DNA of 64,000 nt, taken from NCBI GenBank assembly GCA_020632155.1, contig JACKGE010000001.1, positions 314,285 to 378,284 of the forward strand, written 5' to 3'. Origin of the DNA: Candidatus Nomurabacteria bacterium (GTDB lineage: Bacteria > Patescibacteriota > Minisyncoccia > Phycocordibacterales > UBA918). Of this stretch, positions 25,616-28,211 are shown piece after piece. Below the pieces are notes generated by a model. That model ran no database searches. It was not told where the DNA came from and worked only from the letters and a program-made list of their open reading frames with translations. The stretch's first letter is position 1; each line of letters begins with the position of its first letter. The position numbers and the translations under genes were made by a program.

Positions 25616-25680
25616 TTTTTTTAAGAGCAATTAAATTTTATTAAAATCTATACGGTTTATAGATAAACTGAGCAGATTCT

Positions 25681-26040
25681 TTATAAGGCCATCAACATTT
25701 TTGAAAAAAAGAGACCAGATAAATATAGACCAAAGAATAGGATTGGGTATCGTAGCAAAACATTTTTGTTTTTCACTGTCTGAAAGATGCAAAAAGCAAT
25801 TATTACGTAGTAACTTAAAGTGATAGGTAGTATCGTTACCCACGATTGACTAAGGAGATGTCCGAGCAAAAAAAAGAGAGTTCCTCCGAAAGAAATATTT
25901 ACAGTGTCTAGTAGCTGTGTGAACGAGTGTGAGGTGGTACCAAAGTTTTGATATAAGACGAAAAAAGAGAACAAGAAAGACAGCGTATACAATATAAGCC
26001 AAAACCTCCGAGTTCTATAAAAAGGTAGATTTGATTCCAT
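25681..26040 (-). CDS. Hypothetical polytopic membrane protein, in a low-GC region
   Basis: 119-aa hydrophobic ORF in a ~30-35% GC stretch. The call is weak. Confidence 0.25.
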   Translation of the reverse strand: MESNLPFYRTRRFWLILYTLSFLFSFFVLYQNFGTTSHSFTQLLDTVNISFGGTLFFLLGHLLSQSWVTILPITLSYYVIIAFCIFQTVKNKNVLLRYPILFFGLYLSGLFFSKMLMAL

Positions 26041-26137
26041 ATAAATATAATAGTACCTGATATGTCAGGGAGTGGACTTGGTTATAAACATCGCCGAACC
26101 AACCCTAAAAGGGTCAGACACCATTAAATTAAAATAG

Positions 26138-26827
26138 TTGTGGTATAGTTTAAATATGCCACGTCCAAATCGAATCGATGTTGGCGGAGAGGTATACCAT
26201 TGTTTAAATCGCTCGGTTGGCAGACAAAAAATTTTCCATAACGACAGCGATTACCGTCTATTTGAGTCTGTGTTAGAAGAGGTGCACGATATCACTTCCG
26301 TTGATATCCTAGCGTACACGGTCATGCCAAACCACTGGCATCTCGTGTTAAGGCCTAAATTGGATGGAGATCTTTCTGATTTTATGAAGCGTTTGACTGT
26401 TACTCACACGCAGCGATACCGAGTGAAGACAAAGACGGTGGGAACAGGACCAATATATCAAGGTAGATATAAATCATTCCTGATTCAAGAAGACAAACAC
26501 CTACTAACAGTTTTAAGATACGTTGAGAGAAATCCCATTGCTGCAAAACTAGTATCTGATCCATTAAAGTGGAAATATGGCAGCGTCTCCAGAAGATATA
26601 ATGGTTCAGATAAAGAAAAAGAACTTCTTACGAGTTGGCCGATAGCAGAACCAGCGGAGTATTTTAAATCACTTTCTGTACCACTCACTGCTCAAGAATA
26701 TGAAAAAGTCGCGCGTTCCAAAGAAAAAGGGGTTCCGTATGGTAGCGATGCATATGTTATAAATACGGTTGAGCGATACAAATTACAGTCGACCTTAAGA
26801 GGCAGGGGAAGACCAAGACAGGTTTAA
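26138..26827 (+). CDS. tnpA: IS200/IS605-like Y1 HUH transposase (TnpA / REP-associated RAYT-like)
   Basis: HuH motif ...VMPNHWHLVL... and catalytic Tyr region ...LRYVERNPIAAKL... About 229 aa, the longer RAYT-like form. Confidence 0.65.
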   Translation: MWYSLNMPRPNRIDVGGEVYHCLNRSVGRQKIFHNDSDYRLFESVLEEVHDITSVDILAYTVMPNHWHLVLRPKLDGDLSDFMKRLTVTHTQRYRVKTKTVGTGPIYQGRYKSFLIQEDKHLLTVLRYVERNPIAAKLVSDPLKWKYGSVSRRYNGSDKEKELLTSWPIAEPAEYFKSLSVPLTAQEYEKVARSKEKGVPYGSDAYVINTVERYKLQSTLRGRGRPRQV

Positions 26828-26856
26828 TATTATGCAATATTTTTTAAAAAAGAAAG

Positions 26857-27219
26857 GTGTCTGACCCCATTTTTGCTTCTGCGAAAGATTATCTGCTCCC
26901 TAATTCTCAATTAGGAGGTTACGATGGCGGTGTCGGTGTAATGCAGGTCTCGGGTGCAGTTGGAGAGAAATATGGCTATACTAAGACTGAATTAGCTAGA
27001 GATCCATATAAAAACATAGATGCAGGTACAGCCTACTTAAGTAGCTTTAACACTAGTAATCCCGCTCTTGCTGGCAAGCAATACAATGGCGCTGCTGCTT
27101 ACGGGCAGAGAATTCAGGCGCAAGTCAACAATCCTAACTACAACACAAATGTAGTAACATATGGTTTACAGCAAGTAGTAAAGTCATTAAAGTCAATTGT
27201 TAAAAGGTTAAAAGGTTAG
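26857..27219 (+). CDS. Stand-alone SLT (lytic transglycosylase) domain protein with the catalytic Glu replaced (NS instead of ES). GTG start
   Basis: ...AKDYLLPNSQLGGYDGGVGVMQVSGAVG...DPYKNIDAGTAYL...YNGAAAYGQRI matches SLT-domain motifs (GLMQV, DP..NI.AG..YL, YN.G). The E-S catalytic dyad reads N-S. Confidence 0.45.
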   Translation: MSDPIFASAKDYLLPNSQLGGYDGGVGVMQVSGAVGEKYGYTKTELARDPYKNIDAGTAYLSSFNTSNPALAGKQYNGAAAYGQRIQAQVNNPNYNTNVVTYGLQQVVKSLKSIVKRLKG

Positions 27220-27229
27220 AGAAAGAAGA

Positions 27230-27601
27230 ATGAAATCAAAAACAACAATAGCAGTCGTGATTGGAATCCTGGTAATTGGTGTTGGATACCTTGCTCTTGG
27301 ATTGGTGTTTAGTTTTCCTTCTGCACTAAACCCTTTCTACGAAAGCTGCTTAGATTTGTCACTTGGAATGAATCAAGAGGAAGTTAATTCTAGGATGCAG
27401 AATTTCTTGGATGATTCAAATTACGTTGTCCAAGAGGATGGGCCAGGAAAATTTGGATGGAAAGATAGATTAAATTATGATAGCTCCCTACATATCACCT
27501 TAGACAAAGATCCTTGGTATAAGCTCGATCAGCATCCATGGCAGTGTAAAGTTCTCTTCGAGGATGGGTTAGTGGTTGATGTCATTCCATTCTTTGATTG
27601 A
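27230..27601 (+). CDS. Hypothetical protein with an N-terminal TM anchor
   Basis: 123-aa ORF; MKSKTTIAVVIGILVIGVGYLALGLVF anchor. Confidence 0.35.
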   Translation: MKSKTTIAVVIGILVIGVGYLALGLVFSFPSALNPFYESCLDLSLGMNQEEVNSRMQNFLDDSNYVVQEDGPGKFGWKDRLNYDSSLHITLDKDPWYKLDQHPWQCKVLFEDGLVVDVIPFFD

Positions 27602-27676
27602 AGACATTTAAATCTACACTTCCATCAATACCTTTGATTTTACCGTAGGGATTGTATTGCCAGATTTTCCAGTTGT

Positions 27677-28027
27677 TTACCTTTGAGTGTTCGGATGTGA
27701 ATATATGTCTCTTATCCAAATCTCGTAAGAGCTAAACTCAGGATTGAGATAATCGCCGTAAAAATTATAGGTTGTATAAAGTATCGGATCTTGTCCAAAT
27801 TCTTTAATGGTAATATCAATAAATTCTCTTAGTTTAGTCTGAAACTCTTCTTTTGAAGGACGCTGTTTGCTGTTGCCAACGTATTCCAAATCTATAGCTG
27901 GCGGGAGTTGGTTATGACATCGCCACTTCATTGCTTCCAGCACCCTTTTCTTTTTGGGCCAATATGGTATTGTACTGGCCATCAGGCTCATGACAGCTGG
28001 CCGGAGTGCGTAAAGGCATTCTGACAA
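27677..28027 (-). pseudogene. GH25-muramidase-like C-terminal fragment (degenerate lysozyme remnant)
   Basis: ...PILYTTYNFYGDYLN...YEIWIRDIYSHP resembles the C-terminal PIIY...LWIA.Y block of GH25 lysozymes. The N-terminal catalytic region is absent. Adjacent to the transposase and SLT fragment. Confidence 0.3.
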
Positions 28028-28211
28028 TGAACCGCTTGGTTCACCAGCCGAGGTCCACTATCTAAACGATTTTGGAGGTCGAAGCCTAAGATACAGAAAG
28101 CTTCGGCTTTTTGTATCATGGGCCTGCATTATTGATAGTTTTTAGGTTAGAGGTTTCAGGGGATAGTGGTGAAAATTGCTTGGCAATTTTCACCGGCGCA
28201 CGAAGTGCGCA

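Follow-up and report, generated by a model that had tools for sequence, protein, structure and literature searches.

What is the patch of low-GC DNA that separates a Vps62-like gene from rplJ/rplL in the genome of a Candidatus Nomurabacteria bacterium (contig JACKGE010000001.1), and are its genes working or decayed? We analysed a stretch of 64,000 nt (64 kb) of this contig, hereafter called the window, in which the patch occupies positions 25620-28100. A sequence-only reading, made without database searches, had seen in it the eroded remains of a lysis module, associated with a phage or an insertion sequence (IS) and with a transposase caught up in the decay. Our own reading, to which we give a probability of about three in four, is that the patch is ordinary accessory DNA made up of an intact TIRtron (a transposase gene between terminal inverted repeats, TIRs), an orphan Rhs toxin/immunity module and a dead GH25 gene. 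All three pieces are known kinds of element. Contigs and proteins from elsewhere are referred to by our own L and P numbers.

An intact transposase between conserved inverted repeats

The transposase and its immediate surroundings comprise four features:

26107..26125, plus strand: left repeat (TIR-L), AAAAGGGTCAGACACCATT; its exact core, 26111-26122, is the reverse complement of 26856-26867
26141..26149, plus strand: extended -10-like box TGGTATAGT, read from the sequence, 6 nt before the ATG
26156..26827, plus strand: Y1 HUH tyrosine transposase/nuclease of the TIRYT type, 223 amino acids (aa), intact (Pfam, homologues, alignment and model)
26849..26874, minus strand: right repeat (TIR-R), which on this strand reads AAAAATGGGGTCAGACACCTTTCTTT; exact core 26856-26867

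The transposase is intact, not eroded. Its sole Pfam match at E <= 1 is Y1_Tnp (PF01797, E = 1.2e-15), which bears out the earlier call of a Y1 HUH protein of the long, RAYT-like form, made from the motif MPNHWHLV. Within this motif, PNHWH contains H60 and H62; the catalytic tyrosine is Y122 in RYVERNP, where N126 completes a Y..NP motif. In an alignment of 29 homologues, the HUH and Y..NP residues are invariant or nearly so. The homologues also keep a C-terminal extension of ~90 aa, with W161, Y169, E181, P194, G196 and G218-R219-P220 conserved in residues 147-223, the last of these being an invariant GRP near the C-terminus.

The homologue search gave 5,479 matches. Among the matches listed, almost all are 222-225 aa long and start with M[PSAGT]R (most often MPR), and identity declines in a smooth gradient from 76% to 50%. 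Nearly all of the listed clusters have 1-6 member sequences, with one of 38 and one of 12. We assign the start codon to ATG 26156, giving a 223-aa protein that agrees with essentially all listed homologues; the start at TTG 26138 (229 aa) proposed in the sequence-only reading is replaced by this one. Close relatives were obtained by exact-protein look-ups, and a scan of genome contigs gave distant homologues, of 39-49% identity, among the matches listed. The AlphaFold2 model (predicted local distance difference test, pLDDT, 87.6) is of high confidence up to residue ~210, and the best match in the PDB is E. coli TnpA_REP (4ER8), both by sequence (E = 1.9e-6) and by fold (TM-score 0.73 on the target). 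Since synonymous sites are saturated, we compared the proportions of differing nonsynonymous (pN) and synonymous (pS) sites, not dN/dS; between the transposase and its homologue in L006, pN is 0.16 and pS 0.82 (saturated).

A perfect 12-nt inverted repeat, GGGTCAGACACC, brackets the gene (26111-26122 and 26856-26867), one arm lying 33 nt before the ATG and the other 28 nt after the stop codon. The two TIRs are each ~20 nt long in all. Shuffling the 60-nt flanks produced a repeat that reaches 12 nt in only 19 of 20,000 cases. TIR-R carries the published GGGGWSAS motif as GGGGTCAG. The left arm reads GGGTCAG, and TIR-L is slightly eroded compared with the family consensus AAAATGGGGTCAGACACC, having AAAAGGG in place of AAATGGGG. 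The sequence-only reading had seen no REP (repetitive extragenic palindrome) repeats, which proves wrong in substance, given this perfect repeat and its conservation in relatives. It had also pointed to IS200-type subterminal hairpins or REP sequences as things to look for around 26138-26827. The repeats that are present are terminal and not of the hairpin kind: folded as single-stranded DNA, the arms have no significant hairpin potential (z -2.5 to +0.8; minimum free energy -2.3 to -4.3 kcal/mol). A search for further copies found none in the 64-kb window apart from a single 1-mismatch match inside rplJ, which we judged to be chance.

The same consensus, AAAATGGGGTCAGACACC, flanks homologues of 70-76% identity in four unrelated contexts and at the same distances; in L006, L095 and L096, 33 nt separate the repeat from the ATG and 26-28 nt from the stop codon. 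The neighbours of these homologues are a type I restriction system or ddl in L006-L009, a GmrSD/EcoRI-methylase system and a resolvase fragment in L095, and unrelated genes in L096. Such wholly different contexts are not those of a conserved core gene, and no synteny of the transposase was found in relatives. We also compared the flanks of 70 loci of more distant homologues, whose range extends from Paceibacteria to Planctomycetota and Nitrospirota. The two flanks of one locus share an exact inverted repeat of 12 nt or more in 54 cases, compared with only 46 of 600 mismatched flank pairs, and changes in one arm are matched by changes in the other (L016, L069). Within Patescibacteria, the recognition repeat is conserved better than the protein. 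The gene that had been pictured as eroded is thus intact and conserved, and has the flanking repeats of its published subclass.

A TGnTAnAAT-like box 6-7 nt before the ATG also occurs in L006, L095, L096 and L090. This suggests that TGGTATAGT may be the promoter of a leaderless transposase mRNA; a scan for consensus two-hexamer promoters did not report the box. The right end has an inward-facing -10-like box of its own, TGCATAAT (26831-26838, minus strand). Both boxes lie ~18-19 nt inside the repeats and both are conserved in L006, L095, L096 and L090. If functional, the right-end box would imply an antisense transcript.

The repeats also vary in number among relatives. L006-L009 (5880-6720) encode an identical TIRYT protein and have a common left flank, but TIR-L is present in them as a single copy, as two tandem copies, or as two full copies with two partial ones, which break at GGGGTCA. 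Between L006 and L008, 99% identity extends to 4 nt beyond TIR-R; from there on the sequences are unrelated, with a type I restriction island in one and ddl in the other. In L008, a 64-nt copy of the left flank is found again at 7955-8018. Inverted dimers of the identical repeat AAATGGGGTCAGACACC are found without a gene in L132 (1135-1179), L136 (553-610) and L159 (33-105), where they have a look like that of miniature inverted-repeat transposable elements (MITEs) or REPINs. These are high-GC metagenome contigs, and the recognition sequence is therefore shared far beyond Patescibacteria; the scan for the 15-nt repeat gave mostly single matches, which are probably chance, so that its multi-copy loci are the informative ones. 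Together, the tandem variation of TIR-L, the breakpoint just past TIR-R and the gene-less dimers hint at ongoing activity in relatives.

Comparison with known Y1 transposases

Which class of Y1 element is this? It matches the published TIRtron/TIRYT architecture (subclass 2.1 of TnpAY1, group 1 of the RAYTs), an assignment made on architecture and motifs and not on the published subclass hidden Markov models or Markov (MCL) clustering. As described in the relevant passages of the literature, TIRtrons have repeats at a fixed distance from the gene with the motif GGGGWSAS (Di Nocera et al., 2013, PMC3733652), and TnpAY1 subclass 2.1, the TIRYTs, has a median length of 238 aa, a Y..NP motif, a C-terminal extension, no REP and a low copy number (Quentin et al., 2018, PMC6006769). 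RAYT group 1, as presented by Bertels et al. (2017, PMC5581495), corresponds to the same class. The element shares with the TIRYTs the Y1 HUH and Y..NP motifs, a length in the range of ~220-240 aa, the conserved C-terminal extension and the low copy number (there is one transposase copy within the window). It also shares TIRs at a fixed distance from the gene that carry GGGGWSAS (here GGGGTCAG) in place of REP hairpins, and extra tandem, dimeric or dispersed repeat copies in some genomes.

There are also differences. The host belongs to the Patescibacteria or candidate phyla radiation (CPR), where NCBI's names for identical proteins also place the window. This group is unnamed in the relevant parts of those surveys, and the published architecture extends to the small genomes of Patescibacteria. 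The HUH motif is NHWH or NHFH here, and the tyrosine motif is YVERNP, compared with YIELNP or Y[IV]HLNP in the published passages. Pfam (E <= 1) finds no Bac_DnaA_C, HTH_23 or HTH_28 in the extension, which has the invariant GRP instead; within group 2.1.2, resemblance of the C-terminus to helix-turn-helix (HTH) domains is described as heterogeneous (Quentin et al., 2018, PMC6006769). Finally, the left repeat of the window copy is slightly eroded.

Two better-known classes fit less well. Like the E. coli RAYT TnpA_REP (4ER8), its best structural match, the transposase gene is flanked by inverted copies of a recognition sequence. However, it scores only 71.4 bits against the NCBIfam model REP_Tyr_transpos (NF047646; cut-off 80), is ~80 residues longer at the C-terminus than TnpA_REP, and has repeats that are neither GTAG-tagged (GT[AG]G) hairpins nor dispersed within the window. 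With a score below the cut-off and no GTAG-tagged hairpins, we rejected a strict RAYT/TnpA_REP identity. The TnpA proteins of IS200/IS605 (subclass 1.1) share the Y1 HUH fold and the Pfam family PF01797, but the transposase reaches only 19.2 bits with the NCBIfam model transpos_IS200 (cut-off 55), has Y..NP where they have Y...Q, and is 223 aa long compared with ~150 aa. The element also lacks tnpB, subterminal hairpins and a set of near-identical copies. On the score, the Y..NP motif and the single copy in the window, we rejected an IS200 identity as well.

By homology with E. coli TnpA_REP and with TnpA of IS608 and ISDra2, the TIRYT most likely binds its repeats and cuts and rejoins DNA via a covalent 5'-phosphotyrosine intermediate. 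The chemistry would be carried out by Y122 and a metal bound by the HUH motif, and the gene would be transcribed from the extended -10-like box.

A toxin tip cut at the right repeat, and its likely immunity gene

Immediately to the right of the transposase, two open reading frames (ORFs) follow on the same strand:

26857..27219, plus strand: orphan SLT-like C-terminal toxin domain of the Rhs/Tc type, truncated at its 5' end (Pfam SLT, homology to RHS giants)
27230..27601, plus strand: likely cognate immunity gene, 123 aa, intact (synteny with the SLT-like domain, conservation)

The first of these matches Pfam SLT (PF01464) with 27.9 bits (cut-off 21.3), over profile positions 36-94 of 117 only. 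It has few close relatives. When 1.84 billion representative proteins were searched with a profile, the domain was found at the very end, on the C-terminal side, of proteins of 2,491, 2,682 and 2,443 aa. The giants P0133, P0135 and P0151 have SpvB, FG-GAP and RHS_repeat domains, one of them TcdB_toxin_midN as well, and P0133 (2,491 aa) shares 69% identity with the ORF over its residues 2358-2454. In the fragment P0129, the end of the Rhs core (ARYY..GQFISQDP ... NSYGYASDNPITNKDPSGR) runs straight into the SLT-like domain. What had been called a stand-alone SLT domain is thus an SLT domain indeed, but one that is left over from the C-terminal tip of a giant RHS protein. Relatives within the Patescibacteria have genes for giant SpvB/RHS proteins that end in a cell-wall-cleaving domain.

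Where exactly is the tip cut? All long relatives have DPxG, then (F/V)WW.GFYDW.GY ... GE(V/I)FGGH.RA ... AIIYEEQSHL ... GGVGVMQV, and in the full-length ones AIIYEEQSH lies ~25 residues upstream of PNSQ. Homology in the window begins at ~26872, directly outside TIR-R, and the aligned window copy has nothing before ...ASAKDYLLPNSQ, meaning that the AIIYEEQSH segment is absent. AIIYEEQS corresponds to the canonical catalytic 'ES' helix of SLT domains, which is missing because the domain is cut exactly at the right repeat. The sequence-only reading had the catalytic glutamate replaced by asparagine; the alignment shows instead that the glutamate was lost with the absent segment and not mutated to the asparagine of PNSQ. 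As the helix that bears it is missing, activity of the fragment is all but excluded. The proposed GTG start (26857), which is also the annotated one, lies within TIR-R. What is deposited as a 'transglycosylase SLT domain-containing protein' is thus, almost certainly, a piece of a toxin without activity, and its start codon belongs to the repeat of the transposon.

In the proposed course of events, the last ~115 codons of a peptidoglycan-cleaving, SLT-like toxin domain were left outside the right repeat, most likely when the TIRtron inserted or when DNA beside its right end was deleted. A simple insertion would leave the missing N-terminus upstream of the transposase, and we looked for it there: the three plus-strand frames of 25600-26200 are rich in stops and show no SLT similarity.

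The second ORF encodes a 123-aa protein with a hydrophobic N-terminal stretch, which we took for a membrane anchor by reading the sequence, without a prediction tool. As in the window, a homologue follows the SLT-like domain in L090 (63% identity), in L092 (57%) and in the contig of P0125, so that the adjacency is kept in four loci. In L099, a homologue of 117 aa (34% identity, E = 6e-23) begins 3 nt past the stop codon of the full-length gene for the 2,491-aa toxin, which is the classic order of a toxin and its immunity gene. Because it directly follows a full-length toxin gene there, the ORF is likely to be the cognate immunity gene, and the neighbouring deposited 'hypothetical protein' would gain a function. 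Its product probably still guards the cell wall against SLT-type Rhs toxins of relatives. The proteins deposited for this 486-kb contig include MCB9811650.1, MCB9811651.1, MCB9811652.1 and MCA9346625.1 (locus tags KC960_03995/04000). They carry clashing organism labels at NCBI (26156-27601): the transposase is assigned to Candidatus Nomurabacteria, the SLT and 123-aa proteins to Candidatus Saccharibacteria.

The arrangement resembles orphan modules of Rhs systems. The tip is homologous to that found after the DPxG core end in RHS-repeat proteins, the toxin has neither a core nor a start of its own, a small co-conserved gene comes next, and a relative's locus (L090) is an array that includes an rhs fragment with an Ntox44 domain. 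It differs in that the window tip is cut inside the domain, so that its 5' boundary is a transposase repeat and not an rhs core; in that no parent rhs gene was found among the genes tested around the patch; and in that the toxin is a lytic-transglycosylase-like (SLT) domain.

Two of the relatives' loci deserve description. Directly after the immunity gene, L090 (3502-4920) has a piece of an rhs gene in which YD repeats and the DPxG end of the core are joined by an Ntox44 domain (51.9 bits), and because this piece adjoins the immunity gene, the locus is an orphan toxin-cassette array. L099 (4001-11832) holds the full-length 2,491-aa SpvB/FG-GAP/RHS protein with its SLT-like tip, followed by the immunity gene; the pair is flanked by genes of cell division and the cell wall (mraZ, rsmH and a penicillin-binding protein, PBP, transpeptidase) on one side, and by peptidase M23 and Mur ligase genes on the other.

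Is the truncated ORF a gene in its own right? For the toxin tip, pN is 0.18-0.29, well below pS, and for the immunity gene it is 0.21-0.28 compared with a pS of 0.69-0.87. That pN is lower than pS in the tip, the immunity gene and the TIRYT shows past constraint and gives no date for the truncation; most of the divergence of the tip may predate the truncations. The 120-aa ORF might nevertheless be a working gene for a non-catalytic peptidoglycan-binding protein or a regulator, with the TIRYT as a domesticated host gene that supplies its upstream region. The low pN would agree with this, as would the reading frame, which runs uninterrupted for 120 codons in the window and is open in L090 and L092 too, and the annotation as a protein by NCBI. 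We nevertheless hold this to be highly improbable: the sole possible start, the GTG, is inside the repeat and has zero spacing from a purine-rich stretch; the three genomes have three different N-termini, each of them read from repeat DNA; the catalytic helix is lost; and no signal peptide is evident by eye, without a prediction tool.

The junction of TIRtron and toxin cassette

The window, L090/L091 and L092/L093 stand for three genomes in which the right end of a TIRtron adjoins the same cassette. Their repeats differ in sequence, the toxin domain has been cut at at least two points, and the transposases are only 50% identical, whereas the cassettes are 63-75% identical. In L092, the cassette has a decayed TIRtron copy on either side, and between L006 and L008 identity at the level of strains ends 4 nt after TIR-R. 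A precedent also exists in a TnpA_REP of subclass 2.1 that is physically linked to hypervariable prochlorosin genes (10.1101/2020.03.09.984088). Perhaps, then, the TIRtron and the toxin/immunity cassette are one functional, mobile or recombining unit, in which the right end captures, truncates or shuffles cassettes. We regard this as unlikely. None of the other ~85 TIRYT loci examined has the cassette, meaning the link may be a single inherited accident, and in the window no second TIR is found downstream of the immunity gene. The sample is three genomes, and the causal reading of the prochlorosin link was later softened by its authors (10.1101/2020.03.09.984088). The recurrent junction could result from one old insertion followed by deletions, or from targeting or capture of the cassette.

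If the right end does act as a breakpoint for toxin cassettes, the TIRYT subclass would gain a role in diversifying toxin repertoires. This junction is the only part of the patch that might lead to something new.

The decayed copies in L092 (7100-9203) are a C-terminal remnant (7831-7983) and an internally deleted gene with a doubled right repeat (8876-9112). Tandem repeats of ~120 nt lie upstream of them, at roughly 7100-7560.

A GH25 pseudogene

The third piece of the patch faces the other two:

27582..28027, minus strand: GH25 muramidase pseudogene, C-terminal half, in two frames (27677-28027 and 27582-27719)

The sequence-only reading had recognised a GH25-like C-terminal fragment on the opposite strand, and the 116-aa ORF at 27677-28027 (minus strand) indeed matches PF01183 with 40.6 bits over profile positions 84-158 of 180. 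To this we can add that the remnant goes on in a second frame, 27582-27719 (...NNWKIWQYNPYGKIKGIDGSVDLNVF). With the two frames joined, the Pfam score rises to 58.5 bits and coverage to positions 84-180 of 180, and the lysozyme 2WAG (220 aa) can be aligned with the joined sequence over its residues 98-207 (E = 1.1e-17). The N-terminal half, which would have reached into the rplJ leader, was not detected in any frame. On this evidence, the piece is a frameshifted pseudogene. A word-index search with the GH25 ORF found two proteins only, and the only relative found is another fragment beside a transposase. The origin of the gene is compatible with an autolysin, a toxin tip or a phage.

With this piece in place, the earlier interpretation of the patch can be weighed. 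SLT and GH25 are typical endolysin domains, the region is low in GC, and weak PHROG matches to a lytic tail protein/transglycosylase and to endolysins (E 8e-5 to 1e-3) might be taken for traces of an eroded lysis module, borne by a phage or an IS, with an endolysin-type SLT and GH25 and a transposase that took part in the decay. The GH25 remnant would suit this origin as it would any other. However, the close relatives of the SLT fragment are tips of RHS-repeat giants and not phage proteins, the fragment travels with an immunity-like gene and not with a holin, no phage genes were found among the neighbours tested, and the transposase is intact. The PHROG matches are generic as well as weak. 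A phage- or IS-associated lysis module is therefore quite improbable, although the broader claim of the sequence-only reading, an accessory patch with degenerate coding fragments of cell-wall hydrolases beside a transposase, is borne out.

Several points nevertheless weigh against the combination of an intact TIRtron, an orphan Rhs module and a dead GH25 gene, which we prefer. According to the relevant passages of two surveys (PMC3733652, PMC6006769), no TIRYT has been biochemically tested, and because TIR-L is slightly eroded, the window copy may no longer be mobile. The TIRtron may have caused the truncation of the toxin domain or may merely be its neighbour; both fit. The SLT ORF remains open over 120 codons with no stop or frameshift and with pN far below pS, and a residual non-catalytic function is possible. 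Lastly, ten large or neighbouring ORFs of the window were scanned and contained no RHS repeats. With no rhs core gene among the genes tested, the module is displaced from any parent toxin gene.

Composition and neighbours of the patch

The GC content of 25620-28100 is 38.7%, compared with a mean of 47.6 +/- 3.0% for 2.5-kb windows, and this is the lowest-GC stretch of the whole 64 kb, in agreement with the earlier description of a low-GC patch. Its left edge contains two further features:

25616..26106, no strand: spacer of low GC (33.6%) that separates the transposase element from the Vps62-like gene
25681-26040, minus strand: doubtful 119-aa ORF inside this spacer

The neighbours had also been named correctly, with the Vps62-like gene upstream (a marginal Pfam match, 23.6 bits with a cut-off of 22.1) and rplJ/rplL downstream. 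In full, the neighbours of the patch are the Vps62-like gene, DUF1360, a PG_binding_1 protein and rplJ/rplL. The sequence-only reading had further listed two small anchored proteins. One of these is the 123-aa ORF, which is real and conserved; the other, the 119-aa ORF, is doubtful as a gene. The identical contig L001 has no called gene at its position, its exact sequence was not found in a collection of 15 billion proteins, and it has no match in Pfam, NCBIfam, PADLOC or PHROG. It is apparently hydrophobic, as judged by eye without transmembrane prediction. Over the patch as a whole, PADLOC reported no defence-system match, and Rfam had no match within 25400-28400 even at E <= 1.

Other observations in the window

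Further to the right, in the rplJ leader (28100-28248), the unit CTACAAC occurs four times in tandem (28213-28240), preceded by a perfect hairpin of 12 bp (28168-28194). The leader has no match to the Rfam L10_leader even at E <= 1, and rplK-rplA is not found upstream of rplJ-rplL. Just past rplL, at 29477-30340, long ORFs overlap on both strands in DNA of 53-57% GC and have no Pfam match. The 23S rRNA match (32291-35961) is 3,671 nt long compared with 2,925 nt for the model, corresponding to one or more insertions of ~750 nt in all; an ORF inside it (35402-35749) has no Pfam match. A distance of 15 kb separates the 23S-5S pair from the 16S gene (51047-52506), after which comes tRNA-Ile (53785-53859).

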